Virus record (IMG/VR): IMGVR_UViG_3300028610_001111
Source of the DNA: a virus
Length of the DNA stretch: 60,788 bases
Reading direction: 5' to 3' (one strand)
A program made the position numbers and the translations under genes. Positions within the stretch are counted from its first letter, which is position 1. Each line of letters begins with the position of its first letter. The notes below the pieces were generated by a model. That model was not told where the DNA came from. It saw nothing but the letters and a program-made list of their open reading frames with translations, and did no database searches. Below are positions 26,413 through 40,380 of the stretch, piece after piece.

Positions 26413-28364
26413 CAGGTTCCTCCGTTTCTATATCCTATTGAACTCATTCCGCAAGGAGCTTTCTGCTGAAGAGGTTGTTTTTTAAACCTAGAGATGGCTT
26501 TCTTCTTTGCAGTGTACTCAACATTACATCTTATTTGATTTGCATCGAATTTATAAATATAACACATTATTCCAAAAGTTATAGCAGAATCAAGTGTTCC
26601 TTCACTCGTATGATCACAACGTTTTTTTTCTCCTTTAACTGAAAGTACAGCTGCAGCAAGTTCCTTTAACAATGGTTCGTCTGGTATATAAGGATATTCA
26701 TCTTCTTCGAAATCGTCAAGCCAATCTCTCACTAATTCAAATATAATGTCTCTTGTTGCTGAGTTTACATCGAATCCTTTTTTCTCTCTCTGCTTGCCTG
26801 TAGAGTCTTGAGTTGTTGTAAGGAAATACCAGTACGGGTATTCATCTAATTCAAGCTTTAGAGTAGCATTTGCTGATCCTCTGCCATGTTCAGGAGCAAG
26901 TAATGCGTTGTTATAATGTCTTAATCCGTATGAACATACTCTAGCAAACTGAATCGTTTCCAGAGTGGATCTTATAGTGGCTACCATGACAGGCTTTATT
27001 TCTTCCTTTTCCTTCATAGGTGGTCTTGACATTGTAGCAGCACATATGTCTCCTACTGCTTCAGGTGTCTCTGCTCCTTCAGAAGGATCTATAGTTAATA
27101 CATAACCCACGCCCGGTATAGGGTCTTCGTAAACTCTCCAAGTATTCATTTTATTTGTTTGAGAACACAATACAGAATTAACTGGAGTATCCATTAAACC
27201 AGGCAAATGAGTTATATGAGGCTTGCTAATCATTTCATGATAAGTTTTAGATGGTTGAAATTTCTTCCATTCGTAAACTCTACTATAAGACGCTATCCAT
27301 TTTAATATTTTCTTTCTGTCATAAAAAGGCTCACCCTTTATTTCTGTGAAGAATCCCCAACACCTTGAACCCCTGTACCAAGACTCCATACCTTTTCGTT
27401 TTATTTCTATATCTTCTTTATCTTGGTAGGGTGAATCATATTGAGTTGCGTGAAAAACTTGTATGTCTTTATTTCTGTTCTTAGGAAAGATCAATTTCTT
27501 TGACCACGTTATACCGTTAAGAGGTGTCATAACAATGCTTCTGAATTTGGCATGCTCCTGTGCTGAATGCCAAATGTCTGAGTTAGGCATTTCCTCATCA
27601 CCGATATAGCTCCATGCCATTTTAGCTTCAAATCTATCATGACCCTGCTCATAAGTTATAAATTTTACTAGGCAGTCTCTATCTGCGTATACAATTCCAT
27701 CTTGTTTGTTTGTTCCTTTATTCCCTCTTGTCCTGTCGTAAAATGATTCAGGAAATTCTTTATATAAATTTTCCGCAACACTAGGCCACCAATAATTAAC
27801 CTTTGCCTCTTTGAATGTTCCTATCCATATTTGAGAGCCAGGAGGAGCTATCTTTTCTTGAGGATATACACCTACACCAATTATATTACCGCAATCCCAT
27901 TCCTTCCAACCTTTTGATTCAGGAGACTTCCAATTGAAATCTATAAATTCTCCCGAACTTGAATCAAATCTACCGAACCTTAAAATATTCTCTTTAGTTG
28001 TTTTTCTCTTTATCTTTGTATCTACACCTAAATCATACCTTAAAGAAAATGGAATTTCTCCGGTAGTCATTATTGCTGTTTCTATTTTAGGAGCAAATGA
28101 TTTTCCTATCTGAGAACCACCAAGCATTATCCTTAACTTATTTATAGATAACATGTAACCTGACTGAAATTGGTGCGGGTCTTGTCCTACATATCTTATG
28201 AAGTCCGGATCTCTGAGGTCTATTCCGTCTTCGAGAGCCTTTGCAATTATTTCTTCAGGTCTCTTCTCTACATCCCATGGTTCGAAGAAGTAAAAAGCAT
28301 GAGCCTCTTGATCGCCATCTGCGATCCTATCTAGATCTTCATTTAGCCTGTCAAATACGTCCAT
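26412..28364 (-). CDS. terL: terminase large subunit
   Basis: Walker A-like GGSQIGKS sits ~100 aa from the N-terminus. Length is ~650 aa and the portal gene is adjacent. The start is refined to ATG 28364 (MDVFDRL...), which forms a TAATG overlap with the methyltransferase stop. Confidence 0.85.
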   Translation of the reverse strand: MDVFDRLNEDLDRIADGDQEAHAFYFFEPWDVEKRPEEIIAKALEDGIDLRDPDFIRYVGQDPHQFQSGYMLSINKLRIMLGGSQIGKSFAPKIETAIMTTGEIPFSLRYDLGVDTKIKRKTTKENILRFGRFDSSSGEFIDFNWKSPESKGWKEWDCGNIIGVGVYPQEKIAPPGSQIWIGTFKEAKVNYWWPSVAENLYKEFPESFYDRTRGNKGTNKQDGIVYADRDCLVKFITYEQGHDRFEAKMAWSYIGDEEMPNSDIWHSAQEHAKFRSIVMTPLNGITWSKKLIFPKNRNKDIQVFHATQYDSPYQDKEDIEIKRKGMESWYRGSRCWGFFTEIKGEPFYDRKKILKWIASYSRVYEWKKFQPSKTYHEMISKPHITHLPGLMDTPVNSVLCSQTNKMNTWRVYEDPIPGVGYVLTIDPSEGAETPEAVGDICAATMSRPPMKEKEEIKPVMVATIRSTLETIQFARVCSYGLRHYNNALLAPEHGRGSANATLKLELDEYPYWYFLTTTQDSTGKQREKKGFDVNSATRDIIFELVRDWLDDFEEDEYPYIPDEPLLKELAAAVLSVKGEKKRCDHTSEGTLDSAITFGIMCYIYKFDANQIRCNVEYTAKKKAISRFKKQPLQQKAPCGMSSIGYRNGGT

Positions 28365-28852
28365 TAAGGTTTCCTTGCTATGCCTATGCAATCATCATGC
28401 TGGCCTTTATAGATTTCACAAACCTCTATTTCCCACCCGACGTGCTTAAACAATATTTTCATTCCGTCAGGCAAAATCCTCCAGCAATCTATCGGATGAC
28501 TATGTATGTCAATCTTAGTAGGAGTTATTATACAACAATATCCACCAGACTTCAAAACAGAATCTATATCTTCTATAAATGAAAATGGATTAATACAATG
28601 TTCTATAGTGTTACCAGATACCACTATATCATATTTATCAAGGTACTGACTGAATAATCCTGCAGGAACAACTTTGTCAACGTTAGGGCCTTCTACAATG
28701 TCAACTCCTGTATAAGCTTCGAAATGGTTAAAGAGTTCTCTATAACTTCCATTAACATCAAATGAACCTACATCTAATACGTTTTCATCAAAATTATTGT
28801 CTATATAAGTGCCTACAAACCCTTTCATAAGTTCTAATGATTCAGCATGCAT
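28364..28852 (-). CDS. class I SAM-dependent methyltransferase (substrate unknown)
   Basis: Motif I-like VLDVGSFDVNG and post-I/III-like ...YDIVVSGNTIEH...LKSGGYCCI. The start is refined to ATG 28852 (TAATG overlap with the upstream stop). Confidence 0.7.
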   Translation of the reverse strand: MHAESLELMKGFVGTYIDNNFDENVLDVGSFDVNGSYRELFNHFEAYTGVDIVEGPNVDKVVPAGLFSQYLDKYDIVVSGNTIEHCINPFSFIEDIDSVLKSGGYCCIITPTKIDIHSHPIDCWRILPDGMKILFKHVGWEIEVCEIYKGQHDDCIGIARKP

Positions 28853-29874
28853 TATTCCCTCATTCCTGTTTTTGTATTCTTCCATATATCTTTCAGGCCT
28901 TTAACTACGTCCTCCTGAATCACTCCAATAGGCTCTATTTCTTTTCCAGCTTTCTCATTTTTACCAAGCTCAAATGCTTTGAATACTAATCTCTTGCAAA
29001 GTGAAATCATTTTATGCATTCTGGCTGCGAGTTCATCGTAATGAACATAATCAGATGAATCCATTTTAAAATGCCTCATTGAGCACTTAGATATTATATC
29101 AGCCATTTTAAGTTTAATATCTATTTTTGTTTTATCAGTCATGGGAACAGGACCCACTTTAGTCATTTCTGTCAGTTGTTCCCTAACCAGTATTGCGTCA
29201 AACAATTGGTCTCTGAGATATTCACCAGTCTCTTTATCTATACATTCAACATTCTGCAACCTATCTAATATCTCTCTAAGTATTGGAAGCGTTGCAAGTT
29301 CGTCAGCTTTTTCCTGATCAAGGCTACGCTTAAATTCATGAAGGGTCTCAGCCATCAATGCTATATCTTCCTTTGCTCTGAGACTAACTTCAGCTATTTC
29401 AGCTTCTTCCTTTGTAACTGCTAGATATCTTTCGCTATCCATACTTGCCTTTCCGTATATTTGTAGATCTCTTAATTGATTCTTTGCAAAACTGTAAGAC
29501 CTGTGCTGTCTGGAATTCTCACACCTTAAACAATATCCTACTCCGAGGTGTCCTGTCTCAGGGCCTAGCCCGTAGAAATTACCTTTAGTTTTTGATCCAG
29601 CAGTTTTAGTGCATCTACATACGTCACAAATATGGTTTCTGGCAGAATGCGAATAGTCGCCCTGCGCTTCTCTCTTCTTAACAAATGATCTCACCTTTGC
29701 ATGACATCTAGGTAAAGGTGAGTCTGGAGGCCAGAATAAAATTCTTCTAACAGCCATTATCTGCGCCTTAGATGTTGGACCTATACTAGGATTATATTTC
29801 TTAAAATGCTGCTGCCAAATACATGGCTTGTTTCTGTTTGCAATGTATGGCTTTCGGATACATTTTTCATTCAT
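28852..29874 (-). CDS. Cys-rich N-terminal / helical C-terminal protein; occupies the position where a small terminase subunit would be expected
   Basis: Track ORF with ...CDVCRCTKTAG...GYCLRCENSRQH... followed by long charged helices. The start is refined to ATG 29874 (ATGAATGA overlap). The function call rests on position only. Confidence 0.45.
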   Translation of the reverse strand: MNEKCIRKPYIANRNKPCIWQQHFKKYNPSIGPTSKAQIMAVRRILFWPPDSPLPRCHAKVRSFVKKREAQGDYSHSARNHICDVCRCTKTAGSKTKGNFYGLGPETGHLGVGYCLRCENSRQHRSYSFAKNQLRDLQIYGKASMDSERYLAVTKEEAEIAEVSLRAKEDIALMAETLHEFKRSLDQEKADELATLPILREILDRLQNVECIDKETGEYLRDQLFDAILVREQLTEMTKVGPVPMTDKTKIDIKLKMADIISKCSMRHFKMDSSDYVHYDELAARMHKMISLCKRLVFKAFELGKNEKAGKEIEPIGVIQEDVVKGLKDIWKNTKTGMRE

Positions 29875-30055
29875 GGCAGATTTCAAATCCTTCGTTTGTA
29901 ATCATATCAACATAAATCTCTATACAAGACGGATCAATTCTGATCATATCTTCTTTGTAAAGGTTACCCATAAATAATTTTGCTCTATGGCTTTCAGCAC
30001 TTATAATATACATAGAGTTCTTGGCTCTAATCTTTATATCACAATCTTTTGACAT
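29867..30055 (-). CDS. hypothetical protein (62 aa)
   Basis: Track ORF, co-oriented and overlap-coupled. Confidence 0.5.
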   Translation of the reverse strand: MSKDCDIKIRAKNSMYIISAESHRAKLFMGNLYKEDMIRIDPSCIEIYVDMITNEGFEICHE

Positions 30056-30422
30056 TCAACACCTCCGATGGTTTTCTATATTCGTGATCCTCTCCTTTGA
30101 ATCTCGTAGTTAAAAGCCCTGCATGTTCCATAGTTTTCTCATTAACAATCCAATTCATATAAACAACAAAAATCTCATTCTTATACACGCCTCTTACAAC
30201 AGTCTTCTTACTTATCTTTTCATTATATACGATATCACACTTGACTTTCAATTTCCTTAGTTCGTCATACTCTTTCAGCATTATATCTTTTTCAAGCTCA
30301 AACAACTCCCTTTTAAGCACTTCTTCAGGAGCTATGCCGTCAGCCTCTATGGGGTCATTGCAAATATTCTTAACATGGCTTGGAAGCGTTCCGTCCTTTA
30401 CAATTATATTAATCATTATCAA
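30039..30422 (-). CDS. hypothetical protein (127 aa)
   Basis: Track ORF, co-oriented and overlap-coupled. Confidence 0.5.
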   Translation of the reverse strand: MIMINIIVKDGTLPSHVKNICNDPIEADGIAPEEVLKRELFELEKDIMLKEYDELRKLKVKCDIVYNEKISKKTVVRGVYKNEIFVVYMNWIVNEKTMEHAGLLTTRFKGEDHEYRKPSEVLNVKRL

Positions 30423-30771
30423 CTCCGTCAGGTTCAGGCCAATCTTTTAATTTGATTGCAAGTATAGTCTTTTGTCTAATCATTAATGCTTTAGCAATTC
30501 TATGATATCCATCTACAAGTGCTCCGTAAGGACCCAAAAGAATAGGATGACTCAAATCACTATCATTTATTCTTTTGCAGTGATACGCTATATCAACAAC
30601 TCTGGTACAACCAGCAAACCTTTTATATGTTAAATCGTAGTGATCAAGATTAAGTTTAAAAGTCTTGCATTTTTGTTCTTCAGCGCATTTATAAAGATAA
30701 GGAGCTGACCACGTTTTCCCCTGCTGTATGAATGTACTGTCCTCAAATTTACATGTATCAATATCAATCAT
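30409..30771 (-). CDS. ParB-like nuclease-domain protein
   Basis: ...HPILLGPYGALVDGYHRIAKAL... matches the ParB/sulfiredoxin DGxHR core motif. Confidence 0.6.
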   Translation of the reverse strand: MIDIDTCKFEDSTFIQQGKTWSAPYLYKCAEEQKCKTFKLNLDHYDLTYKRFAGCTRVVDIAYHCKRINDSDLSHPILLGPYGALVDGYHRIAKALMIRQKTILAIKLKDWPEPDGVDND

Positions 30772-30920
30772 TATCTATTTCCTATTAAGCAACACTTCTT
30801 GTATTTCCTGCCTGATCCGCATGGGCATCTGTCATTCCTGCCTATTTTCTTCTCTTCCCTGACAAGCGTGCCGCCTGACCAATGCCGTTTCTTAACTTTC
30901 TCGTAAGAGTCATTCTGCAT
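30771..30920 (-). CDS. 49-aa SEC-C-motif (SecA C-terminal zinc-binding motif) protein, below the ORF-track cutoff
   Basis: Hand translation gives [49 protein letters not shown]. The ATG overlaps the upstream stop and the TAA overlaps the next ATG (TAATG). CPCGSGxKYKKCC is the SEC-C signature. Confidence 0.6.
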
Positions 30921-31140
30921 TTTCTGTTTCCTTTTCTAATACTATCTTTCTGTATATGTGAGCAGGTACTACTCTCACTATATTATCATTATTAATATTA
31001 TCGGGATCATCAGTATTATCATAAAAAATCACTGCTCCTGATTCAGTTACCCTAAGTCCTGTTGCAAAAATATAACCATTAATTCCGTCTACAGTACATA
31101 ACATATATTTCTTCATTTCGCTCTCCATCCTGCCACCCAT
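30910..31140 (-). CDS. hypothetical protein (76 aa or shorter)
   Basis: Track ORF; several in-frame Met codons near the start. Confidence 0.5.
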
Positions 31141-31340
31141 TCAACATTCTCAACTTCTCCAGCCTTTATATCAGAAAAATTAAACTTACCAATGCAATCT
31201 CCGCCAGAAAGATCAATTGGATATACAGTCAATTCTTTGTAACTAATATGTCTCAAGAAAGCTTCGCTAGCTGTCTTGGCAATAGTATACGGCCTGATTT
31301 CCTCGTACTCAGTAAACACTGCAAAGCATATGTCATTCAT
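31113..31340 (-). CDS. hypothetical protein (75 aa)
   Basis: Track ORF, overlap-coupled. Confidence 0.5.
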   Translation of the reverse strand: MNDICFAVFTEYEEIRPYTIAKTASEAFLRHISYKELTVYPIDLSGGDCIGKFNFSDIKAGEVENVEWVAGWRAK

Positions 31341-31740
31341 TTGTCAACCTCGCAATCTGAATATCAATAGCTTTTATCTTCCTCATATTCTCGTCAGTGC
31401 TTTCAGCAGTAAATAATTCCGCTCTGATAGAATTCAGTTCCTCAAGACTAGGCTCTCTAGGGCTTTTCATATTTTTTTCTTTCTGTACGTCTATCTCATT
31501 ACACGAATCAAACAAAGTTTCACTAGGATTAAGTAAATCATCATTTGGACCACTAGAATTATTTTTTATCTGCAATATCGATTTTGTCCAGACTTCATTT
31601 TCAGTATGTGTTGAAAATATAACGCACATATCCCTTCTTCTTTCGAGGAAACGCTTGATGCTGTAACTAGGTATTTCTTCTATAGGTACGTTAATCTTGT
31701 TATACGTTTCAATTACTTCTGGCGTGATTTCACTTTTCAT
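31333..31740 (-). CDS. hypothetical protein (135 aa)
   Basis: Track ORF, overlap-coupled. Confidence 0.5.
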   Translation of the reverse strand: MKSEITPEVIETYNKINVPIEEIPSYSIKRFLERRRDMCVIFSTHTENEVWTKSILQIKNNSSGPNDDLLNPSETLFDSCNEIDVQKEKNMKSPREPSLEELNSIRAELFTAESTDENMRKIKAIDIQIARLTNE

Positions 31741-32137
31741 TCATCTTCCTCCAGCAATGTAAAGCCATACCTTCTCGAATCCAAAGCCTGTGATTTAATG
31801 TAGACTTCTTGCATTTATGGCAATATATACGTTCCCTTTTAAAAGCAACAACAAGTATTGCACCACATCCGCAATCACTGCACTTTACATCAATAGGAAA
31901 AGCTAAATCTTGCAAACTATATTCATTGTTCTTGTTAAATGAGGATATGCTGACCTCTCTTGCATTTAAAATATCAGAAATACGTTCCTTCAATACATGC
32001 AAATCAGCTTTAGCGTCTGCCAGCTTATCGCTAAGTTCTTCGTATGTAGGGCATCTGCCATATTTATTGCAAGCACCTCTCCCATCCGTTGTAGTGTATC
32101 TGACAGGCTTTCCACATCCACACAAGTCTTCACTCAT
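31730..32137 (-). CDS. zinc-ribbon protein (135 aa)
   Basis: CGCGKP...C..YGRCP at the N-terminus and CSDCGCG...CHKCKK at the C-terminus. Confidence 0.5.
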   Translation of the reverse strand: MSEDLCGCGKPVRYTTTDGRGACNKYGRCPTYEELSDKLADAKADLHVLKERISDILNAREVSISSFNKNNEYSLQDLAFPIDVKCSDCGCGAILVVAFKRERIYCHKCKKSTLNHRLWIREGMALHCWRKMNEK

Positions 32138-32355
32138 AGCTTGCTCCTATTATGAAAAAACCAATTCAGACCAGGAATATTATTTATCCTGTTCCAAGCA
32201 TCAAGCGCATCATGTAAATTTATATGCCTCAAAGTAGACTTACCACATTCACTACATGATATACTCCATCTGAAATAACCTCCGTGATCACTCAACCCTT
32301 GAGCATATGACAATGCACCAAGCCTCTCACCATCATTGCAATCTCTACATTTCAT
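32134..32355 (-). CDS. zinc-ribbon protein (73 aa)
   Basis: CRDCND...CSECGKS pairs; ATGA overlap with the next gene. Confidence 0.5.
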   Translation of the reverse strand: MKCRDCNDGERLGALSYAQGLSDHGGYFRWSISCSECGKSTLRHINLHDALDAWNRINNIPGLNWFFHNRSKL

Positions 32356-32524
32356 CCTTACCCGCTTCCTTCTTCAGCACCACACCACATACATACCGGC
32401 TAACACTAAGCAAATCACTAGGATCAAATACCCCTCTCCTCTTATGATCCCTAACAGTATGTATACTCTCATCAACAGCCACAGCCACATCATTCATCCC
32501 GTATCTCCAACTCCGCTTTTTCAT
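32345..32524 (-). CDS. 59-aa first gene of the minus-strand operon, possible small DNA-binding (Xis/AlpA-like HTH) protein; one codon below the track cutoff
   Basis: Hand translation gives MKKRSWRYGMNDVAVAVDESIHTVRDHKRRGVFDPSDLLSVSRYVCGVVLKKEAGKDEM*. It lies ~50 nt downstream of a consensus promoter. The HTH call is weak. Confidence 0.45.
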   Translation of the reverse strand: MKKRSWRYGMNDVAVAVDESIHTVRDHKRRGVFDPSDLLSVSRYVCGVVLKKEAGKDEM

Positions 32525-32572
32525 AATGTAGGCTTTCCGTCAATTAAGGCCGCTAATTGACCATTTCTATAC

Positions 32573-32601
32573 ATTATCCAGCGTATAAGCACATTTGTCA
32601 A
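32573..32601 (-). promoter_or_regulatory. sigma70-type promoter for the minus-strand operon
   Basis: On the minus strand: TTGACA (32601-32596), 17-nt spacer, GATAAT (32578-32573). It is ~50 nt upstream of the ATG at 32524. Confidence 0.65.
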
Positions 32602-32688
32602 TAGCTTTTTTAGCAAAATTAATATGCAATACATCAGCAAAAACAATGCAGGGGGTAAGGCCGGGGCGTTTAAAAGCAAGGGGGGCGG

Positions 32689-32755
32689 GATGGACGAAAG
32701 CCTACGGAAAGATTGATTTGAACGCCAACTTTCCGTAGGCCACGTGATCCATCCC
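32689..32755. repeat. long imperfect hairpin / inverted repeat (8 bp + 12 bp arms)
   Basis: GGGATGGA-cgaaa-GCCTACGGAAAG-(17 nt)-CTTTCCGTAGGC-cacgtga-TCCATCCC, read directly. Confidence 0.8.
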
Positions 32756-32884
32756 CAATAAGGGGCAACAATATTAATGAGGGAGTAGCTTAGTGCGGCG
32801 TGGGCCTTTACAACCTTAACGCCAAGGGTGCAGCCCCCTTCACTTCCACCATTAATATAAATAATACTACCAGATATAAAAATA

Positions 32885-32914
32885 TTGTCAAGAGGCTTAT
32901 CCTTGCAGTATTAT
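32885..32914 (+). promoter_or_regulatory. sigma70-like promoter inside the ORF-free region (no ORF for ~760 nt downstream)
   Basis: TTGTCA (32885-32890), 18-nt spacer, TATTAT (32909-32914). Confidence 0.45.
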
Positions 32915-33065
32915 GATTCAAGGCTACGGAATAATACAAATTCAAGGCTGGCAGGGGCTTTTAATGATGAACAGGCGGGATGGGGACAATCCTTCTCTCT
33001 CCCTCTATGCACACGCATTTCGCCATGGGGCTCCCCCCACCCCTTTTGCAATGCTTGCCTTTCCG

Positions 33066-33151
33066 TTTGCACTGGTTGCTAGCCAGGCCTTGCGGCCCGC
33101 TTTGCCCGGTGTTTGCAGTGTGAAACAATGCGGCTGCCAGGCTTTGCAGTG
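33066..33151. repeat. three iteron-like 9-mers TTTGCA(C/G)TG
   Basis: TTTGCACTG at 33066-33074, TTTGCAGTG at 33112-33120 and at 33143-33151. Confidence 0.6.
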
Positions 33152-33229
33152 CAGAGTGCTTTGCGGGTCGATGTGCATAAAATGTATGGTGCTGTCCCCC
33201 TCCGCTGCTTAGCTGAAATTGCTTTGGAT

Positions 33230-33268
33230 AACGCTATGCTGCTGCGCTTGCGTTAGAGGCATAGCGTT
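33230..33268. repeat. perfect 10-bp inverted repeat with 19-nt spacer
   Basis: AACGCTATGC (33230-33239) and GCATAGCGTT (33259-33268). Confidence 0.85.
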
Positions 33269-33310
33269 GGCACTGGCCTAGCGGCTAGCCCTTGCTCTGG
33301 CTAGCGTAGC

Positions 33311-33341
33311 ATTGGTTGATTGATATGCTATTGGTTGATTG
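33311..33341. repeat. 12-bp direct repeat ATTGGTTGATTG x2, 19 bp apart start to start
   Basis: Copies at 33311-33322 and 33330-33341, read directly. Confidence 0.85.
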
Positions 33342-33584
33342 TTGTTATGTAGTAGTATGTGTTAGTGAGGTTTTCGAAAACTTAGTGTTCCGGGCGAACC
33401 AGCGCCATTGACTGAAACCAAGCTTTTGCTGCCTGCTTGGCCCTGCATCGCAACAGATCAAGCCTAACAACTCGCTGTGAGTGCAACGCTTGATCTCTTA
33501 CCGTCCTGTAGTACACGTTGATTCATTCTCAGGGTCTTTGTTTCTCTTTCTTTCCCGCCCTCCATAAACTGAATCCTGCAACGG

Positions 33585-33618
33585 TTTTTTTCACACCCTT
33601 TTTGCTGCGTGAAAAAAA
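33585..33618. terminator. A/T-rich 10-bp hairpin (possible terminator/insulator just upstream of the early promoter)
   Basis: TTTTTTTCAC (33585-33594), 14-nt loop, GTGAAAAAAA (33609-33618). Symmetric T and A runs could act in either direction. The stem is weak because it is AT-rich. Confidence 0.35.
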
Positions 33619-33642
33619 GTGAAAGAAAAGCTTGAAATGAGC

Positions 33643-33671
33643 TTGACAACTATCAGGCCTTTTGCTAACTT
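33643..33671 (+). promoter_or_regulatory. sigma70-like early promoter for the plus-strand operon
   Basis: TTGACA (33643-33648), 17-nt spacer, TAACTT (33666-33671). Confidence 0.5.
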
Positions 33672-33722
33672 AGTCTTATGAGTGAGAGATATCTTAAGAA
33701 TATGACAGGAAAGGAGCATAAC

Positions 33723-33929
33723 ATGATAACCAACAGCAGACAGTTAGAAACAATACCGCAGCCAGTACTTGACGCCTTATCAGCCTTGGATTGCCTAGGT
33801 TTCGACGATGAAGAAGAAGCGTTGGACGCAATAATACAACATGCTGACTGGACTGATAGATGGGATGTTAACGATGGAGATATAAGCAATTCCTCGATCA
33901 TTAATAGCTTTATAAGGAATGGATCATGA
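33723..33929 (+). CDS. small acidic early protein (68 aa)
   Basis: Same frame as track ORF 33678..33929. The start is refined to ATG 33723, which follows AAGGAG by 7 nt. D/E-rich (...DCLGFDDEEEALDAIIQHADWTDRWDVNDGD...). Confidence 0.6.
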   Translation: MITNSRQLETIPQPVLDALSALDCLGFDDEEEALDAIIQHADWTDRWDVNDGDISNSSIINSFIRNGS

Positions 33930-34063
33930 GAGAGTTATTAGGTATATTAGGAAGATACTTTGGTCGCCGCAAACCCAGGGCAAGAGGCCCTATCATAGCT
34001 ACAGTCATAGATTATGATATAGTATGGTGTGATGTTAATAAGAAGTACGTAAACAGAGGCTAG
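33926..34063 (+). CDS. hypothetical small ORF (45 aa)
   Basis: Hand translation MRELLGILGRYFGRRKPRARGPIIATVIDYDIVWCDVNKKYVNRG*; ATGA overlap with the upstream stop. Confidence 0.4.
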   Translation: MRELLGILGRYFGRRKPRARGPIIATVIDYDIVWCDVNKKYVNRG

Positions 34064-34065
34064 CT

Positions 34066-34194
34066 ATGACTGCTATCGAAATGACTGAAACTAGATTCGG
34101 CAGGGTGCTTTTGCACATTGCTTGCTGCATAAAGAGAGATAAGCGCGTTAAATGGCACTGGCAGGGCATTGTAAGAGAATTAAGGTATAAATAA
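34066..34194 (+). CDS. hypothetical small ORF (42 aa)
   Basis: Hand translation MTAIEMTETRFGRVLLHIACCIKRDKRVKWHWQGIVRELRYK*; fills an otherwise empty gap. Confidence 0.35.
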   Translation: MTAIEMTETRFGRVLLHIACCIKRDKRVKWHWQGIVRELRYK

Positions 34195-34209
34195 GAAGGG
34201 TATGAAATT

Positions 34210-34872
34210 ATGAAACTGTCTGAAGTGACAACAAGAGGTATGGCAGGAAAAGCGCGGAAAAATATTAAGAAGGATGAAGCATTCTCGCATTTGTCGCAGC
34301 TAATTGAATTACTGCCAGATGAGTTTGCATCAAATCACGCTATTGCCTTGACTGAGCTTATACATATCTATGAGCCTAAAAATAAAAAGAAGGCTAAAAC
34401 GGATAGATACGCTTGGCTGGCACAAGCTGTTAGCACTGATGTGGGAAGATACGTTCTGACACACGTACACGCCGATGCAGAAAACGTTGTTGCTACTTGT
34501 GGCAAACGCCTACACCTCATGCCTAACACCGATAGCTTGAAAGGTTTCATAGACCCAAACAATAAAACAAATGTAACCGATGTCAAAGACGTTGGAACTT
34601 ATCCCAATTATAAACAGGCTCTTCCAGATTACAAAGGCGGCGACTATAAACAAATAACATTGATTACTGAAAACTTGAAAATTGATGCCTGTTCATCCGG
34701 GAAAAAAGCAACTAAAATAGAATCTAAATTCTACGATCTAAAACATATCAAAGAAGCTTGTTCTATGGGTAATCCGGATGTTACTTATATCTGCAGCACT
34801 ACTCATACCATCAGCCCATTGGTAATGTTATGGAGAGACGGCAGGCTTGCTCTAGTAATGCCGTTAATATAA
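34210..34872 (+). CDS. hypothetical early protein (220 aa)
   Basis: Track ORF. AAGGGT lies upstream. The segment ...VVATCGKRLHLM... faintly recalls the ATDGHRLA motif of beta-clamp-like proteins; not relied on. Confidence 0.6.
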   Translation: MKLSEVTTRGMAGKARKNIKKDEAFSHLSQLIELLPDEFASNHAIALTELIHIYEPKNKKKAKTDRYAWLAQAVSTDVGRYVLTHVHADAENVVATCGKRLHLMPNTDSLKGFIDPNNKTNVTDVKDVGTYPNYKQALPDYKGGDYKQITLITENLKIDACSSGKKATKIESKFYDLKHIKEACSMGNPDVTYICSTTHTISPLVMLWRDGRLALVMPLI

Positions 34873-34882
34873 GGAGCGGATC

Positions 34883-35089
34883 ATGACAAACACCGAATTA
34901 CAGATTACGGATGAGATGATCAATAACCCCGCGGCAGACGCAGTGTTGATTAATTATGGAGCTGGTTGCGCGATGCGAATGGAGGTGGTAGCCGCTTACT
35001 ACATATACTGGGATATTGGCATGGATCAACTGCCGGAAGATGTTGATTACAGTGTTGACGCTATAATTGATCATGATGACTGTAGATAA
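34883..35089 (+). CDS. small acidic protein (68 aa)
   Basis: Track ORF; AAGGAGCGGA RBS upstream. Confidence 0.55.
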   Translation: MTNTELQITDEMINNPAADAVLINYGAGCAMRMEVVAAYYIYWDIGMDQLPEDVDYSVDAIIDHDDCR

Positions 35090-35123
35090 TCATTTGACCA
35101 AAACATAGATAAGGAGCGGACAA

Positions 35124-35405
35124 ATGAAGAAAGAAGCTCATTACAACTACGATATTCAGGCGTGGATAATAAACGGGCATGTTGCGAGATGCGGTCATTG
35201 CGCACCTGTGAAGACATGCACCGCCTGCAAATGGGCTGGCCTCACCGAGGAAGACAGGGCCAACGCTCAAATAATGGCCGCAGCACCGGAAATGCTTGAG
35301 GCATTGGAGGCTGTCACCAAGGAATTACATATGCCTTGTGCAGACTACAGTTGCAAAATATGTGGAAAAGTAAAGCGAGCAATGGACAAAGCGAAAGGCA
35401 AATAA
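35124..35405 (+). CDS. Cys-rich small protein (93 aa)
   Basis: Track ORF with the same AAGGAGCGGA RBS. Contains CGHC...CTAC...CKIC and an AAAPEMLEALE motif common in small phage proteins. Confidence 0.55.
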   Translation: MKKEAHYNYDIQAWIINGHVARCGHCAPVKTCTACKWAGLTEEDRANAQIMAAAPEMLEALEAVTKELHMPCADYSCKICGKVKRAMDKAKGK

Positions 35406-35551
35406 TGCGCTGGCTACACACTATGGGAGGCCAATGGCTTAGCAAGAAAAAAGGAAAATCTGGAACTGTGACCTACCTTACAGCCAGACAGAAGAAAAGC
35501 AAACGCAAATCGGCAAGAGCGGCTAAACGCAAGAATAGGGGGAAGAAATAA
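35405..35551 (+). CDS. very basic 48-aa protein ending KRKNRGKK
   Basis: In frame with track ORF 35336..35551. The ATG at 35405 forms a TAATG overlap with the upstream stop. Confidence 0.45.
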   Translation: MRWLHTMGGQWLSKKKGKSGTVTYLTARQKKSKRKSARAAKRKNRGKK

Positions 35552-35796
35552 TGCCATTAATCACAAATGAACGCTATGACTTTAAGTGCAAAGTAGGGAA
35601 TAGTGACAACCAAACAGCCTCAGACTGGTCGCCATGTCTTGATAGATGTCTTTTTTGTAAGTGGGGAAGAGGTTGCAATTGGAGAGAGGACTTCGTGCGT
35701 TGCGAATGTCCAATCAAAGTCAAAAAGGGTGACATAATTCAGGTTGATAAAATTTATAGAGTTACAAAGAAACGCAAAAACAGGGGCAAGAAATGA
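35551..35796 (+). CDS. Cys-rich protein (81 aa) ending KRKNRGKK
   Basis: Track ORF. Confidence 0.55.
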   Translation: MPLITNERYDFKCKVGNSDNQTASDWSPCLDRCLFCKWGRGCNWREDFVRCECPIKVKKGDIIQVDKIYRVTKKRKNRGKK

Positions 35797-35918
35797 TTGA
35801 ACAGGAAAAAGTATGCAGAGACTGCGGAAAACCAACAGGCAACAGGATATGGGTAAGATGCGCGAATTGCCACTTTGTAAAGAAGTTGAAAAGCTGGAGC
35901 AAGCAAAGGCCATCATGA
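35793..35918 (+). CDS. 41-aa zinc-ribbon ORF not in the track
   Basis: Hand translation MIEQEKVCRDCGKPTGNRIWVRCANCHFVKKLKSWSKQRPS*; ATGA overlaps at both ends. Confidence 0.5.
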   Translation: MIEQEKVCRDCGKPTGNRIWVRCANCHFVKKLKSWSKQRPS

Positions 35919-36382
35919 GCGAAGAGACCAAAATATGCACGTGTTGCGGTAAGCCGTTGCCGTTGTCTGATTACTTTATGCAACCAAGCACGCGGATGCA
36001 TATGTATAAGACGGCGGCTTCTCAGAGGAGAGCTGTTTGTAAGAAGTGCATGAAGCAGCAGCAGAGAGACAATTATCGGGCATGGCTAGGCGGAATTGCT
36101 TCCTCACTCAGAAAAGCAGGGCATAAAAATGTAACCATAAACGGGATTATAGAGCAGCTTGGAGACCCGGAAAAATGCCATATATCTGGTGCACTTATAA
36201 CATGGAAAGAAGCATCCCCCGATCATGTAGTTCCTTTGTCCAGAGGCGGGGCCAGGACTCTTGATAATGTCAAATGGGCGCATAGGGATTGCAATATGAT
36301 GAAACATGGCTTGCCGATGGAAGAGTTTATGGAATGGATGAAAAAAATTCAGACCTACCAAAGGAACAAGAGCGATGGATAA
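35915..36382 (+). CDS. HNH endonuclease, paralogue A
   Basis: ...SPDHVVPLSRGGARTLDNVKWAHRDCNMMKH... The start is refined to ATG 35915 (MSEETKICTCCGKPLPLS). That N-terminus aligns with MDKEETKQCGDCKNPFPLS of paralogue B. Confidence 0.75.
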   Translation: MSEETKICTCCGKPLPLSDYFMQPSTRMHMYKTAASQRRAVCKKCMKQQQRDNYRAWLGGIASSLRKAGHKNVTINGIIEQLGDPEKCHISGALITWKEASPDHVVPLSRGGARTLDNVKWAHRDCNMMKHGLPMEEFMEWMKKIQTYQRNKSDG

Positions 36383-36854
36383 AGAAGAAACAAAGCAGTG
36401 CGGTGATTGCAAAAATCCGTTTCCCTTATCTACGGGCTTTTACTTGAGATCTAAAAAAGATCAAGCAAAGGCGCGGACCGAAGGCGGAAAGTATGGATCT
36501 ATATGTAGAAAATGTCTGAAAATCAGAGAGGAAACGAACGTCAACTTGAAATGGAGACGCATAGCTGGATCATTGCGGCGCAGAGGTGTCATAAATATTG
36601 GCCTACAGGAAGTCAAGGACCACCTCGGTGAGCCAAGCGTTTGTTACCTCTGTGGAAAACCGTTGAGCTGGGCTGACGCAAGCCCTGACCATATTATCCC
36701 TCTGTCAAAAGGAGGTTCGCCAACATTGGATAATGTGGCATGGACACACGCTGATTGCAATATGAGCAAGCACAGCCTGTTGTTAGCTGAGTTTGTGCAA
36801 TTGATAGAAGATATTCTTAAACACCAAAAAAAAGGAAAAAACAATGACGACTAA
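36375..36854 (+). CDS. HNH endonuclease, paralogue B
   Basis: ...SPDHIIPLSKGGSPTLDNVAWTHADCNMSKH..., with an N-terminal CxxC...CxxC. Confidence 0.75.
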   Translation: MDKEETKQCGDCKNPFPLSTGFYLRSKKDQAKARTEGGKYGSICRKCLKIREETNVNLKWRRIAGSLRRRGVINIGLQEVKDHLGEPSVCYLCGKPLSWADASPDHIIPLSKGGSPTLDNVAWTHADCNMSKHSLLLAEFVQLIEDILKHQKKGKNNDD

Positions 36855-37035
36855 ACAAGAGCTGTTGGAAGACTTTAACATCATGAGGGAACAGAATCTT
36901 CCTGTAGCTGAAACAGATGGATTCCGCGAACTTGAAGATATGGTAAAAAAGATAGACGAAAGGCGCTTGAGTCCAAATCAGGCACAAGTATTCAGTGACC
37001 TTGCAAAGAATTTGAACGCTATTATCGAAATATAA
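36844..37035 (+). CDS. hypothetical protein (63 aa)
   Basis: Track ORF. Confidence 0.5.
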   Translation: MTTKQELLEDFNIMREQNLPVAETDGFRELEDMVKKIDERRLSPNQAQVFSDLAKNLNAIIEI

Positions 37036-37150
37036 TTTAAATTGCGGGGACAGCTCTCGGTGAGGGAACCGAGTTTACTTAACGGTGCAACAACAAACAA
37101 CAATGCGGACAATCCGCATAAAGAGAGAAGTAAAAAAAGGAGGATATGTA

Positions 37151-37357
37151 ATGCAGATGGATGATGGACATTTAGAGATGATTGAAAAAGAGAGTACAAA
37201 ACCATTCCTAGATTGTGTAGAAAGAAATCCTGATCTTGTTTTCAATGTTGGCGAGACAGTGACCGTTAAGGGTGGTGATTTCAGGATAGAATCTATGGGG
37301 CGAAAAATGATGGTTCTTAGAGGTCTGCCCGGAACTCGTATCAACACGCAACAATAA
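37151..37357 (+). CDS. hypothetical protein (68 aa)
   Basis: In frame with track ORF 37085..37357; ATG 37151 follows AAGGAGG by 7 nt. Confidence 0.55.
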   Translation: MQMDDGHLEMIEKESTKPFLDCVERNPDLVFNVGETVTVKGGDFRIESMGRKMMVLRGLPGTRINTQQ

Positions 37358-37399
37358 CCGCCCTGGCAGCGATAGCCAGGCATTGAGGAGGATAAGGTC

Positions 37400-37702
37400 A
37401 TGAAGAAAACATTAATAGCAATAATGCTTATAGCTGTAGGCATTACAATCGGTTTGTTTATCGAAGTGCCAAGCACAAAGACACCGGTAGATGAAATAAG
37501 GGTATTGGCCGCTAAGATCGATAAGGCAGGTTATCACATAGAAGCGTCCTTGCTCTACGGGATAACCGCATCAATTGCAGGGTGCAGACAGTATGAACTT
37601 TCTGAACACTGTTTCCCTTTCTACGTTGAGATGAAATCTCAAATGGAACGCGCAAAAAGGGTTCTGAATTCACGCATTGAGGAGGGGGAATGTTATGAGT
37701 GA
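37400..37702 (+). CDS. membrane/secreted small protein (100 aa)
   Basis: N-terminus is MKKTLIAIMLIAVGITIGLFI; GAGGAGGA RBS upstream. Confidence 0.55.
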   Translation: MKKTLIAIMLIAVGITIGLFIEVPSTKTPVDEIRVLAAKIDKAGYHIEASLLYGITASIAGCRQYELSEHCFPFYVEMKSQMERAKRVLNSRIEEGECYE

Positions 37703-37871
37703 AGAACAAATAGACGCACTTATGTACCACATCACAGTGGAGGTTATCTATTCGATGAAGGCTCATGAGTGCGAACACCATCAAGGCAGCATGCAAGAAC
37801 TCAGCGATTTCGAAAGGAAAGTATTTCAATCGCGGGAAGATTTGAAAATAACCCTTTCTGCACGAGGATAG
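37695..37871 (+). CDS. hypothetical protein (58 aa)
   Basis: In frame with track ORF 37677..37871; ATG 37695 follows GGAGGGGG. Confidence 0.5.
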   Translation: MSEEQIDALMYHITVEVIYSMKAHECEHHQGSMQELSDFERKVFQSREDLKITLSARG

Positions 37872-37872
37872 C

Positions 37873-38001
37873 ATGACCCTGCAAACAGAACTGATAAGGC
37901 TTAAATTCAACATCCGAGCGAATCAGGCGGCAAGTGCCAAGCTGAGAAAAACTATCGCGGAAACGGCGGAAATATACAAACTAAAGGAGCATAAAGGATG
38001 A
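37873..38001 (+). CDS. hypothetical small helical ORF (42 aa)
   Basis: Hand translation MTLQTELIRLKFNIRANQAASAKLRKTIAETAEIYKLKEHKG*. Confidence 0.4.
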   Translation: MTLQTELIRLKFNIRANQAASAKLRKTIAETAEIYKLKEHKG

Positions 38002-38004
38002 ACC

Positions 38005-38208
38005 ATGAATAAACCAACCACAAGAACATCAAACCGCATACCGGAGCCTATTTTTATCCCATACCCGAGGAGAAGCATTATAGACTATGCAGGCATTATT
38101 GTTTTTACGATAGGCGTAGTGGTGTTGCTTACGGGTATGTGTTTAAGGATAGTTGAGCTTAAGAATCAAGTTAAGGAGAAAACTGAATCAACGCAGGAGG
38201 TTAAATAA
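38005..38208 (+). CDS. small membrane protein (67 aa)
   Basis: Track ORF; TM segment IIVFTIGVVVLLTGMCL. Confidence 0.55.
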   Translation: MNKPTTRTSNRIPEPIFIPYPRRSIIDYAGIIVFTIGVVVLLTGMCLRIVELKNQVKEKTESTQEVK

Positions 38209-38477
38209 TGGAAGCATATAAAGAACATGGCGGCTCTAGCAATGGAACAAGTGATAAAGTACGGTTCTCTCAATTACTAAAAGGTGATGTATTTAAACAC
38301 AGCGGTAGGGTGCTTATAAAAACAAGTTGGGTAAAGGTTGCAGACAGAAATGACTATCAAAAGATACTGACATTCAACGCATTAAGACTCACTATGCAGC
38401 CAGGAAGTAAAAGCAAGATAAGCCTAAGTACCTTTGTTGAGCCTTTCCCTGATGCAGCTATATACTTGAAAGGATAA
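38208..38477 (+). CDS. hypothetical protein (89 aa)
   Basis: Track ORF; TAATG overlap. Confidence 0.55.
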   Translation: MEAYKEHGGSSNGTSDKVRFSQLLKGDVFKHSGRVLIKTSWVKVADRNDYQKILTFNALRLTMQPGSKSKISLSTFVEPFPDAAIYLKG

Positions 38478-38479
38478 TA

Positions 38480-38632
38480 ATGGATAAGCTCCTCTCTAAC
38501 ATGATAATGTTTATGTTCCTGTCTTTTGTATGTACTTTGATGGTTGCTTATTTCAGGAGTGAGGCTGCATTCAAAAGGCAGTCGAAAACTAAAGAACGCA
38601 CCCGGAAATTCTACAACAAAATATTAAGCTAG
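38480..38632 (+). CDS. small membrane ORF (50 aa)
   Basis: Hand translation MDKLLSNMIMFMFLSFVCTLMVAYFRSEAAFKRQSKTKERTRKFYNKILS*. Confidence 0.45.
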   Translation: MDKLLSNMIMFMFLSFVCTLMVAYFRSEAAFKRQSKTKERTRKFYNKILS

Positions 38633-38645
38633 AAAGGCCAGTCAT

Positions 38646-38930
38646 ATGATGTTTTACAGAATATTAAGGTTGGAAGGAAAAGAAAATATGGACACCATCA
38701 GTATAGATGTATCAAGCAACGCTGATTTTATACTCTCCCCTGACGGGTCGTTCATAAAAGACAGGTATAACTTTGCCGGTACTTTTACCTTGGCACATGT
38801 TAAAAACCATCTAAAATCATTAACAGAAGAGCAGCGAATTGATTTCATTGATTCTTGTATGAAGGATTATTGTGGACTTTGCGGATCTTCTGAACTGCCT
38901 TGCTACTGTCATCCCAGTTTTGATGACTAA
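38646..38930 (+). CDS. hypothetical protein with C-terminal Cys cluster (94 aa)
   Basis: Track ORF; ...CGLCGSSELPCYCHP... Confidence 0.5.
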   Translation: MMFYRILRLEGKENMDTISIDVSSNADFILSPDGSFIKDRYNFAGTFTLAHVKNHLKSLTEEQRIDFIDSCMKDYCGLCGSSELPCYCHPSFDD

Positions 38931-38951
38931 CGCCAACCAGAAAGATTAAAT

Positions 38952-39119
38952 ATGCAAACAACTATATGCCCTAGATGTACAACAACGATCAGATTAAAAG
39001 AATATAACATCAAGCATTGCATTGCGGTGTGTCCGCTTTGCTGTAAAGTTGTAGAGATAAAAAAGCACGAGAAGGCAAAAACCTATCGCTATGCAAAAGA
39101 TGCATTGCATCAACTATAA
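38952..39119 (+). CDS. zinc-ribbon ORF (55 aa)
   Basis: Hand translation MQTTICPRCTTTIRLKEYNIKHCIAVCPLCCKVVEIKKHEKAKTYRYAKDALHQL*. Confidence 0.5.
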   Translation: MQTTICPRCTTTIRLKEYNIKHCIAVCPLCCKVVEIKKHEKAKTYRYAKDALHQL

Positions 39120-39128
39120 AGGAATGAG

Positions 39129-39917
39129 ATGAAAATCATCATACTAGGCAACGGCTTTTTGAGCAGAGCATATCAGGCCCGTGGCTATGAGCATGTGGAA
39201 CCACGGTTCGTGTTGCACGAGACTATATCAGCCACATTCGCGTCATTACGTGCGCTTTGCTTGTTTGCGGACGTGATAGTTAATTGCACTGGATGGGCTA
39301 ATACTAGGCTATGCGAGGGAACGCCTGAAATGGCAATGTTTGTGAACGGAGTTGTTCCTGCAAGAATCAGCGACTGGTGCGCCTTAAATAATAAGAAATA
39401 CGTTCACATCTCGACGGGATGCCTTTACGACCTTGCTCAAGCAAAAGAGACAGACCATATTTCCGCACATTGTGTCTACACGCTCTCTAAATGGATGGGA
39501 GAACTATCTATAGATAAAGAAAGAGACTTGATCCTTAGACCCAGGCTTTTATTTAATTCAGAGCGCACGCCTAAAAATTTCCTATTTAGGATGCAGTCAT
39601 TTGATTCAGCAGTAATAAATGCTCTTGATTCTTTTACTCATACACACACAGTAGTAGAAGCTACTAAAAAATTGCTTGATGCGAAAGTATCAGGAGTTTT
39701 TAATGTTGCTCAGACAGGCATTGCTTCCGTGCATGGTTTATGCGCTATTTGTAAAATACATAAAGAAAAAACAAGAATAGAAGTTCTGAGAAAACAAGAG
39801 AATATCCATCTAGTAAATTGCACCATGAATCTTGACAAACTTCTATACTACTATAAACCTGCGTTTTTTGTAGACTCTGTATCAAATGCATGGGCAAAAA
39901 TGATGAGGAAAATATGA
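39129..39917 (+). CDS. RmlD-like (dTDP-4-dehydrorhamnose reductase-type) SDR sugar-nucleotide reductase/epimerase
   Basis: MKIIILGNGFLS (degenerate Rossmann motif)...DVIVNCTGWAN...YVHISTGCLYD...YTLSKWMGE (YxxxK)...LILRPRLLF...NFLFRM. The collinear pattern matches RmlD as I remember it. Confidence 0.6.
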   Translation: MKIIILGNGFLSRAYQARGYEHVEPRFVLHETISATFASLRALCLFADVIVNCTGWANTRLCEGTPEMAMFVNGVVPARISDWCALNNKKYVHISTGCLYDLAQAKETDHISAHCVYTLSKWMGELSIDKERDLILRPRLLFNSERTPKNFLFRMQSFDSAVINALDSFTHTHTVVEATKKLLDAKVSGVFNVAQTGIASVHGLCAICKIHKEKTRIEVLRKQENIHLVNCTMNLDKLLYYYKPAFFVDSVSNAWAKMMRKI

Positions 39918-40027
39918 CAGCCAGAAAAGTAAGGTGCGAATGCGGCCATGAATTCAAAACAAAAGCTGTTAGGCCATATTGCAGCAAATGCAATAAGAAA
40001 ACTAAAATAGAATGGATCGACAAATGA
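39914..40027 (+). CDS. zinc-ribbon ORF (37 aa)
   Basis: Hand translation MTARKVRCECGHEFKTKAVRPYCSKCNKKTKIEWIDK*; ATGA overlaps at both ends. Confidence 0.45.
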   Translation: MTARKVRCECGHEFKTKAVRPYCSKCNKKTKIEWIDK

Positions 40028-40380
40028 ATGATTATGAATCTTGGCTGGTTGGCGTCATACGTAAACATCCTCTTGATGTGTTGCAGGTGCTAGGCGATCT
40101 ACTGAAAGCTGGTCTTGCCAGGGGGCAATGCTCTGCCAATGACATACGAGACAGAGACTACAGCAAGCCTCAATGCATAGGAGCCACATTCAAGATTCTT
40201 AAGAGGATGGGCTTTAAGCAGCTTGATAAACGCATAGCAAATACAAACAAAAAAGGGCATGGCAGGCGTGTGCACGTCTGGTCGCTGGAAGAAAGATATA
40301 AGGCTGAGAATGCAGTCAATAGCATCTCTTCAAAACTATTAAACGTGGACGGTAACGGCAACATGCTTTTACCAATGTGA
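40024..40380 (+). CDS. hypothetical protein (118 aa)
   Basis: In frame with track ORF 40012..40380; the start is probably the ATG at 40024, overlapping the preceding TGA. Confidence 0.55.
   Translation: MNDYESWLVGVIRKHPLDVLQVLGDLLKAGLARGQCSANDIRDRDYSKPQCIGATFKILKRMGFKQLDKRIANTNKKGHGRRVHVWSLEERYKAENAVNSISSKLLNVDGNGNMLLPM

Follow-up and report, generated by a model that had tools for sequence, protein, structure and literature searches.

What does a tightly packed phage genome keep in more than a kilobase of DNA that encodes no recognisable protein? The question is raised by positions 32,602 to 33,642 of the IMG/VR virus record IMGVR_UViG_3300028610_001111, a stretch of 60,788 nt that is referred to here as the window. 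An earlier note on this DNA had proposed that the region carries a large structured non-coding RNA (ncRNA) with a promoter of its own, or a replication origin or packaging site, or both. Based on a comparison with uncultured relatives we favour, at a probability of about 0.42, the interpretation that this DNA acts in cis as a control region, is flanked by two divergent host-type promoters and most likely holds the replication origin. That it would act as a DNA site in cis is suggested by the presence of a single-copy module of fixed orientation, arrays of short words and a meltable, strand-asymmetric tract, and by the position between divergent promoters.

A gene-free stretch between divergent gene blocks

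The window is a circular assembly of approximately 60,644 bp, its first and last 144 nt (1-144 and 60645-60788) being identical and this overlap lying inside a gene. Genes on the minus strand occupy 2198-32524 and include those for the terminase (26412-28391), an SU10-type portal, the capsid and tail-like proteins; plus-strand genes occupy approximately 33.7-57.4 kb and include an SNF2 helicase and an exonuclease. The gene-free stretch is located where these two blocks diverge. According to a crude gene model, 32525-33677 is the largest gap of the genome, with 1153 nt compared to a median intergenic gap of 3 nt. The true gap is probably nearer 1.2 kb (approximately 1198 nt), since the first early gene (33723-33929, plus strand) is likely to start at the ATG at 33723 rather than at 33678, where the mechanical open reading frame (ORF) begins. 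This ATG is preceded by the Shine-Dalgarno sequence AAAGGAG (33710-33716) and agrees with how the gene was called in L002, an identical locus.

No ORF longer than 99 amino acids (aa) was present in any frame of 32525-33677. An alternative genetic code or a hidden ORF was also considered and rejected, as all three types of stop codon are scattered through all six frames. When the stop-to-stop segments of the gap in six frames were compared with the relatives, the best match had an E-value of 0.06, whereas the flanking gene for a 59-aa protein was conserved. The earlier observation that about 1 kb lacks a credible ORF in an otherwise tightly packed genome was thus confirmed, and a protein-coding frame conserved in relatives, which the same note had named as evidence against its RNA reading, was not found in this comparison. 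The region is also GC-rich, as had been claimed, with a GC content of 0.51-0.61 over 32950-33300 compared to approximately 0.39 genome-wide. The motifs that had been quoted, namely a leftward TTGACA-17-GATAAT, TTGTCA-18-TATTAT, an A/T inverted repeat and three GC helices, were all present at their coordinates.

The terminase has 192 homologues, all of them metagenomic and several on contigs of about 60 kb, and the family was found in marine, lake, sediment and groundwater metagenomes. Approximately 20 uncultured relatives with a terminase 40-60% identical to that of the window were compared; their loci came from exact-protein look-ups and from profile scans of JGI metagenomes (49 loci) and IMG/VR. 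In all fetched relatives whose loci cross the junction and were read at that point, the corresponding place is occupied by 0.6-1.2 kb free of genes. The order of elements is shared, with a leftward promoter, the module, repeat arrays, a C-poor and A/T-richer tract and a rightward promoter, not all of them being found in all relatives. Outside the module the gap is unalignable, and an nhmmer search of the whole gap against the relatives gave one weak match (L053). Blastn with 32400-33900 found nothing in 50,697 phage records, and in the 50,697 deposited phage genomes a tblastn search with the terminase found nothing and the capsid protein gave only matches of 24-30% identity. Searches of IMG/VR with the terminase and with a 220-aa protein as single queries returned nothing, and the exact-protein look-up for the window gave identical copies only, with zero variation.

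A conserved bipartite palindrome module

The family-conserved element is a module of approximately 75 bp (32973-33047, plus strand), which was defined by alignment and by a profile hidden Markov model (HMM) and is present in a single copy within the window. Here it consists of GGGGACAATCCTT (32982-32994), the pyrimidine tract TCCTTCTCTCTCCCTCT (32990-33006), GGGG-CT-CCCCCC (33027-33038) and then A-CCCC-TTTTGC. In the window orientation the consensus reads GGCGrG-GGGGA-YAR-TCCCC, a pyrimidine run, approximately 25-40 variable nt and GGGG-N1-3-CCCC(C...). The variable nucleotides are often G-rich with a terminal GGCYTT, and closer relatives add -CCCC-TTTGC after the second palindrome.

The module was found in 19 aligned sequences, the window and 18 relatives (L003, L005, L009, L014, L015, L023, L028, L032, L033, L042, L046, L053, L055, L062, L063, L065, L067 and L068), which match the module profile by construction. 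It was also seen below threshold in L008 and in partial form in L019 and L029. The profile HMM gave one top match per locus, in a constant orientation relative to the terminase gene. Three of the members, L065, L067 and L068, were retrieved by the DNA pattern of the module. L067 is an AT-rich phage contig in which the junction that bears the module is again divergent and a promoter of the Bacteroidetes type (TAnnTTTG) serves the rightward gene; the factor that reads the module is therefore unlikely to be host-specific. In L023 and L057 approximately 3 kb of rightward genes lie between the divergent junction and the module.

The two palindromes of the module are conserved as sequence and not as pairing, changes in one arm being uncompensated. 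Reading the first palindrome as a DnaA box (yTATCCCCa) was rejected, as it fits the consensus at 7 of 9 positions with the wrong base at position 7 and a formal scan was weak. The second palindrome was likewise rejected as an intrinsic terminator, since the scan did not flag 33027-33047 and a T-run follows in the closest relatives only.

A comparison can also be made with the hairpin promoters that are used by the virion RNA polymerase of phage N4. A stem of 5 bp could be formed by GGGGA-YAR-TCCCC, closed by a 3-nt loop that mostly has a purine at its centre, and the module hairpin similarly lies upstream of early genes. An N4-like hairpin promoter was nevertheless rejected, because the module is single copy, its stem changes are uncompensated and promoters of the host type immediately precede the early genes. 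Among the proteins scanned, of which the three longest have 1792, 1355 and 1127 aa, no giant virion RNA polymerase was recognisable. We consider it improbable that the bipartite palindrome is an undescribed, widely shared phage signal that acts as extruded single-strand hairpins. If this were true, the hairpins, extruded by supercoiling between the divergent promoters, could for example serve for priming or loading or as a hairpin promoter, and would be kept across phages of sigma70-type and Bacteroidetes hosts, with the lineage-specific word arrays giving specificity.

A scan of 185,579 bacterial and archaeal genomes with the module pattern gave 33 matches, which by a rough estimate is about the number expected by chance. 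These matches had poor module-profile scores and no neighbouring homologues of window proteins, and gave no clue to a prophage or a host. Six of the 33 lie in two Planctomycetia metagenome-assembled genomes of one study (L073, L077, L079, L087 and L100 in one, L092 in the second), which suggests a genome-specific GC-palindrome repeat or binned phage contigs.

Divergent promoters and a duplicated flank

All promoter positions in the window and in the relatives were obtained from consensus scans. On the left side, the minus strand carries a predicted sigma70-type promoter, P_L1 (TTGACA-17-GATAAT, 32573-32601), which matches the consensus at 11 of 12 positions, and a second promoter-like site, P_L2 (TTGACA-16-TAGTAT with a TG, 32864-32891). 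P_L2 shares a hexamer with the rightward TTGTCA-18-TATTAT (32885-32914, 10 of 12), and similar leftward sites were found 136-190 nt from the module in L008, L009 and L053. The predicted rightward early promoter P_R (TTGACA-17-TAACTT) lies at 33643-33671 on the plus strand. Seven relatives have leftward promoter-like sites 140-414 nt left of the module, and six have rightward sites (TTGACA-16..18 followed by TAGACT, TAGTAT, TATCTT, GATAAT or GATACT) 217-454 nt to its right. The conserved core would then be the spacer between back-to-back promoters.

The earlier note had also given the region a promoter of its own, the rightward 32885-32914 site. This did not hold up, as the number of promoter-like sites in the region (5) is close to that expected in shuffled sequence (4.7) and the rightward site is not conserved: upstream of the module, such a site was found only in the window, L009 (9 of 12), L042 and the AT-rich L067 (9 of 12), and in none of the other 14 junctions scanned.

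The two leftward sites of the window belong to a diverged duplication of approximately 100 nt that was detected by local alignment. Copy 1 (32595-32693) comprises the promoter -35 and approximately 90 nt and ends in GGCGGGATGG, and copy 2 lies at 32885-32983; the repeats D13 and D16 are both spaced 290 nt. The alignment score was 42, compared to 20.5 ± 2.7 and a maximum of 33 in shuffles (z about 8). Duplication of the leftward promoter accounts for the extra 290 nt or so that the window has relative to L003 or L053 and for its second promoter-like site. It also accounts for the long imperfect hairpin or palindrome at 32687-32755 (inverted repeat I8), placed where copy 2 has the first, conserved palindrome. 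This hairpin has the outer arms GGGATGGA and TCCATCCC and perfect inner arms of 12 bp (32700-32711 and 32729-32740), and its Rfam matches are all sub-threshold.

On the right side, an A/T inverted repeat (I18, 33585-33594 and 33609-33618) is followed by an A-rich stretch (together 33585-33642, with a repeat at 33609-33630). This hairpin had been taken as the end of the GC-rich stretch. An all-A/T stem makes a poor terminator, the hairpin lies directly upstream of the early -35, and the terminator scan raised no terminator-like flag for 33585-33642. From its position and composition it is read here as an UP-like element rather than an RNA terminator.

Word arrays and a C-poor tract

To the right of the palindromes, 12 oriented TTGC words (33044-33296, plus strand) were counted, 10 of them fitting YTTGC, with a consensus of approximately GCYTTGCRG. 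Seven lie at a spacing of 9-14 nt within 33046-33116, the densest cluster of this word in the genome. The word count was 10 in the window versus 1.15 expected (P = 4e-7) and 12 in L008 versus 0.97 expected (P 6e-10). CYTTGC is enriched in the same orientation in L003, L014, L015, L062 and L063 and in the reverse orientation in L008 and L042, with L014 carrying (CCCTTG)9 in tandem and L008 carrying (GGCAAG)n. The remaining relatives have repeats of their own at this place, such as GGCATGGCGTGCG in L033; in L019 and L042 these are long tandem units. As the arrays keep their place but flip strand, they point to a binding site on double-stranded DNA and not to an RNA motif, and we regard them as putative double-stranded binding sites. 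To the left of its module, L042 further has an approximately 55-nt direct repeat in four copies, and on the right a tandem repeat of 27 nt.

In L014 (approximately 7190-7140, reverse strand) the complement of (CCCTTG)9, (CAAGGG)9, is a textbook G-quadruplex array. Canonical four-run motifs were present in L062, L067 and the minus strand of L014, and none in the window or L003; a G-quadruplex was thus rejected as a family feature. Two 9-mers resembling DnaA boxes with one mismatch each, TTATGCACA (33172-33180) and TTATCCAAA (33223-33231), lie on the minus strand within the array.

Between the array and the early promoter the window has a T/G-rich, C-poor tract (33306-33400, plus strand; 9.5% C and 61% A+T), a candidate DNA-unwinding element, which contains a 19-nt tandem repeat (33306-33343) and the palindrome GTTTTCGAAAAC (33370-33381). 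C-poor, T-rich 60-mers were found at the same place with 5-8% C in L003, L015 and L062; L033 and L063 have weaker counterparts (10-15% C). As judged by composition, an easily melted A/T-rich tract thus adjoins the repeats, as in iteron-type origins. A further shared element, absent from the window, is the inverted repeat AGTATTACGAaTGC...GAAACGTAAtACTC between the word arrays and the early promoter; on the reverse strand, two copies were seen in L005 (approximately 3330-3430) and in L055 (approximately 5880-5950) and one in L008 (approximately 770-800).

Such arrays could also serve transcription, as an extended operator or enhancer on which a small phage DNA-binding protein coats words and palindromes and balances the divergent promoters. 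The element lies exactly between back-to-back promoters in those relatives in which both were detected, the first leftward gene is a conserved helix-turn-helix (HTH) gene, and ribbon-helix-helix regulators such as omega, ParG and ParR typically have arrays of 6-7-bp words that can point either way. However, arrays and module lie 140-620 nt from the promoters and not over them, 0.6-1.2 kb would be very large for an operator region given the median gap of 3 nt, and the conserved C-poor, A/T-richer tract would be left without an obvious role. We regard a transcriptional switch as an unlikely function of the stretch.

Tests for a structured RNA

The proposal of a large structured ncRNA was examined with Rfam, folding energies and covariation. 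A scan of the whole window with Rfam 15, which includes GOLLD, ROOL, HEARO, OLE, ribozymes and riboswitches, found at the gathering threshold only a tRNA (40390-40483). At E <= 10 the region itself gave seven matches, all far below gathering (best 29 bits versus 50), and in the loci of eight relatives only tRNAs outside the junction were found; the Infernal/Rfam scan that the earlier note had suggested thus recovered no family in either. The claim that the region is highly structured was not borne out by its folding energy. Relative to dinucleotide shuffles, 32921-33618 gave z = -0.23 on the plus strand, no improvement over the shuffles, and a mildly lower z = -2.49 on the minus strand, and sub-segments ranged from +0.8 to -2.0; the short GC helices are what the base composition yields. 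A common RNA fold of the module was rejected, the module cores of 11 phages having z mostly between -2 and +0.4.

Covariation, which had also been suggested as a check, was absent from the conserved hairpins. Over 19 sequences and 8 pairs there was 1 double-change cell, and the score of 0.102 compared to 0.079 in shuffles was reached by 64 of 500 shuffles. Slid controls scored above the observed value, and the RNAalifold covariation term was +0.01. Outside the palindromes the comparison set is too diverged for a strong test of covariation.

A rightward transcript from 32885-32914, of approximately 690 nt or 130 nt, which acts alone or as a replication primer like the PE1-T transcript of phage c2, is therefore very improbable in our view. 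In its favour, the 10-of-12 sigma70-like site points into the region, and CCC(C)TTT(T) follows the second palindrome in the window, L003, L009, L023 and L053. Moreover, a non-coding transcript from the first early promoter of c2-type phages has been implicated in origin function (PMC7150918). Against it stand, besides the Rfam, plus-strand folding, module-fold and covariation results, that no terminator was flagged at 33027-33047, that the rightward promoter upstream of the module is absent from most relatives and overlaps a leftward promoter-like site with position-matched counterparts in three relatives, and that the word orientation flips between phages. The RNA half of the earlier interpretation thus finds no support, while its other half, a replication origin or packaging site, is compatible with all findings and is favoured here.

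A candidate replication origin

The phage encodes a putative replication initiator (44085-44864, plus strand; phrog_270, phrog_2880 and phrog_19658, 'replication initiation protein', E 2e-13, with a weak HTH_36 match) and a DnaB-type replicative helicase (49784-51154, plus strand; Pfam DnaB_C 2.5e-37 and DnaB 1.9e-16). No DNA polymerase was found among the phage proteins scanned. With an initiator and a helicase but no polymerase found, an origin served by the host replisome would be needed. Iterons in or beside the initiator gene were looked for and none was convincing, which also favours an origin in the gene-free region; the initiator gene is 11 kb away from this region, on which its product would act in trans. 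Additionally, the layout of the region matches that of the lactococcal c2-type origin, and divergent transcription would, by the twin-domain model, send negative supercoils into this segment.

From anatomy and analogy we infer protein binding, melting, helicase loading and origin activity as follows. A phage protein, either the initiator or the 59-aa MerR-like HTH protein, would load cooperatively on the CYTTGC/GCAARG array, and the bipartite GC palindrome module (32973-33047) would be a fixed site with a nucleating or architectural role. Transcription in opposite directions from P_L and P_R would drive negative supercoiling into the intervening segment and so aid melting of the T/G-rich, C-poor tract (33306-33400), at which the phage DnaB-type helicase could then be loaded.

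The 59-aa protein is encoded by the first gene of the leftward operon (32345-32524, minus strand). Tblastn matched it in the loci of 11 relatives, representing 9 distinct phages (E 3e-14 to 7e-3), and of the 9 members of its alignment four matched MerR_1, three MerR and two HTH_17. Profile matches in the PDB were MtaN, CadR and MerR (E 0.03-0.13). These matches, of modest significance, suggest a MerR/HTH_17-like DNA binder, and with its conservation across the family the protein is a candidate binder of the gene-free region. A homologue search with the 59-aa protein returned only itself, the word index being too coarse for such a short query.

The origin of the Ceduovirus (c2-type) phages is non-coding and ORF-free, lies between divergent early and late blocks, varies between groups and supports plasmid replication (PMC7150918). 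The stretch described here resembles it as an ORF-free segment of several hundred bp between divergent early and late blocks that is flanked by promoters and varies internally between subgroups (PMC7150918). It differs in that it is not homologous in sequence to any of the c2, bIL67 and 923 types of origin, no blastn match being found in the phage collection. The c2 origin lies between two early promoters and needs a non-coding transcript, whereas here no conserved promoter reads into the core. Replication from the c2 origin requires no phage protein; the present phage, by contrast, has genes for an initiator and a DnaB helicase. Neither the GC palindrome module nor the CYTTGC arrays appear in the description of the c2 origin (PMC7150918).

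Iteron-type origins, such as ori-lambda, P1 oriR, RK2 and pSC101, similarly have clustered repeats in one orientation beside an A/T-richer, strand-asymmetric tract, and belong to elements that encode a dedicated initiator and a DnaB-type helicase. However, the conserved bipartite GC palindrome has no counterpart there, and the orientation of the repeats, which are spaced 6-17 nt apart, varies between relatives.

Several observations weigh against an origin. The word repeats of 5-9 nt are below the 17-22 bp of classical iterons, CYTTGC/GCAARG is used by only about half of the relatives, the others having their own repeats, and the initiator gene is 11 kb away, whereas in many phages and plasmids the origin is situated within or next to it. 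The enrichment of DnaA-box-like sequences is weak (0.76 versus 0.25 per kb, P = 0.025, in 4 of 13 junctions). In GC skew, a check that had been proposed for an origin, the cumulative minimum does fall at the gene-free region, but it coincides with the switch of coding strand and is hence confounded. Furthermore, the operon headed by the region extends to the terminase gene at a distance of 4 kb, and a MerR-like HTH gene adjoins the region, both of which would fit a packaging site equally well, and the contigs of many relatives end at or just past the module, which could mark physical genome ends instead of assembly breaks.

A candidate packaging site

The main competing explanation is accordingly that the region serves as a recognition site for packaging or as an end of the genome (a pac or cos site, or the junction of a direct terminal repeat), its module being recognised or cut by the terminase machinery; we rate this as less likely than an origin and, on the whole, as doubtful. 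The word arrays would then bind a small DNA-binding packaging subunit, possibly the 59-aa MerR-like HTH protein. A MerR-like HTH fold occurs in the DNA-binding domains of some small terminases, and the leftward operon leads to terminase, portal and capsid. In relatives 0.85-4 kb separate the HTH gene from the terminase gene downstream of it, with a single intervening gene in L058 and L061. Short oriented repeat arrays also flank the terminal repeats of T7-like phages and form the pac site of P1. As in those arrays and the P1 pac hexamers, the window has about a dozen imperfect words of 6-7 nt at a spacing of 10-15 nt in non-coding DNA near early promoters or a packaging signal; unlike there, genes diverge from the region rather than reading one way, and the words are unrelated in sequence.

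The contigs of at least nine relatives (L009, L019, L023/L057, L029, L042, L046, L053, L065 and L068) end within approximately 350 nt of the module, on either side, and those of L023 and L057, which come from different assemblies, stop at positions that agree to within 1 nucleotide. An exact 29-mer from the end of the L057 contig was absent from IMG/VR. These ends could be due to repeats, to branching of the assembly graph at the shared module, to poor sequencing of G/C runs, or to real genome ends. Against the latter, assembly runs through the region without a break in the window and in several relatives, the contig of the window is closed by its overlap elsewhere, inside a gene, and a Logan contig covers the region and is interrupted only at tandem repeats outside it. 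The distances of the ends vary (30-345 nt), and the ends often lie inside tandem repeats (L019 and L042). The others would be explained if the module is the only sequence common to co-occurring strains, so that the assembly graph branches there. In addition, a perfectly palindromic G/C cut site would leave self-complementary ends, and no small terminase family was recognised.

Other features of the genome

Two tandem copies of TTATCAACA, which resemble a DnaA box with one mismatch, lie 12 nt apart at 43468-43488, within a small ORF upstream of the initiator-containing operon. Downstream of the initiator gene, a 15-nt tandem repeat of 17.7 copies (45068-45332) is coding; it lies inside the gene 44923-45672 and is explained by the protein encoded there, a pentapeptide-repeat protein with a C-terminal DUF5758. 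The tRNA that was found with Rfam is a tRNA-Cys (GCA, 40390-40485; 36 bits) that is unusually long at 96 nt, possibly owing to an insertion or a long extra arm.

A 1792-aa ORF (57466..2197, minus strand) crosses the joint of the contig and has a zincin-like HEWVHH motif, and a 1127-aa ORF lies next to it. Neither ORF had a PHROG match. No Pfam match above threshold was obtained for the 1127-aa ORF or for the C-terminal 1072 aa of the 1792-aa ORF, and the 1127-aa protein had no match among PDB sequences; the 1355-aa protein gave only a sub-threshold Pfam match, to YadA_head. A SAM methyltransferase gene (28364-28885) overlaps the start of the terminase gene, and two neighbouring HNH endonuclease genes lie in the early block (35813-36854). 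Genes for a glycosyltransferase and an RmlD-like reductase (5591-6619; 39129-39917) hint at sugar modification.

Implications for the phage family

The function of the region is read from anatomy and analogy. The biology suggested is of a familiar kind, and the gain lies in annotation and in a testable element rather than in a new principle. One candidate is struck from the list of possible large phage ncRNAs. In its place, the one conserved non-coding landmark of an uncultured phage family has been identified, which may explain why the assemblies of these phages break there. Its DNA pattern retrieves family members where protein searches fail, as it did for L065, L067 and L068, and the landmark provides a concrete place to seek the origin or the packaging signal of these phages.

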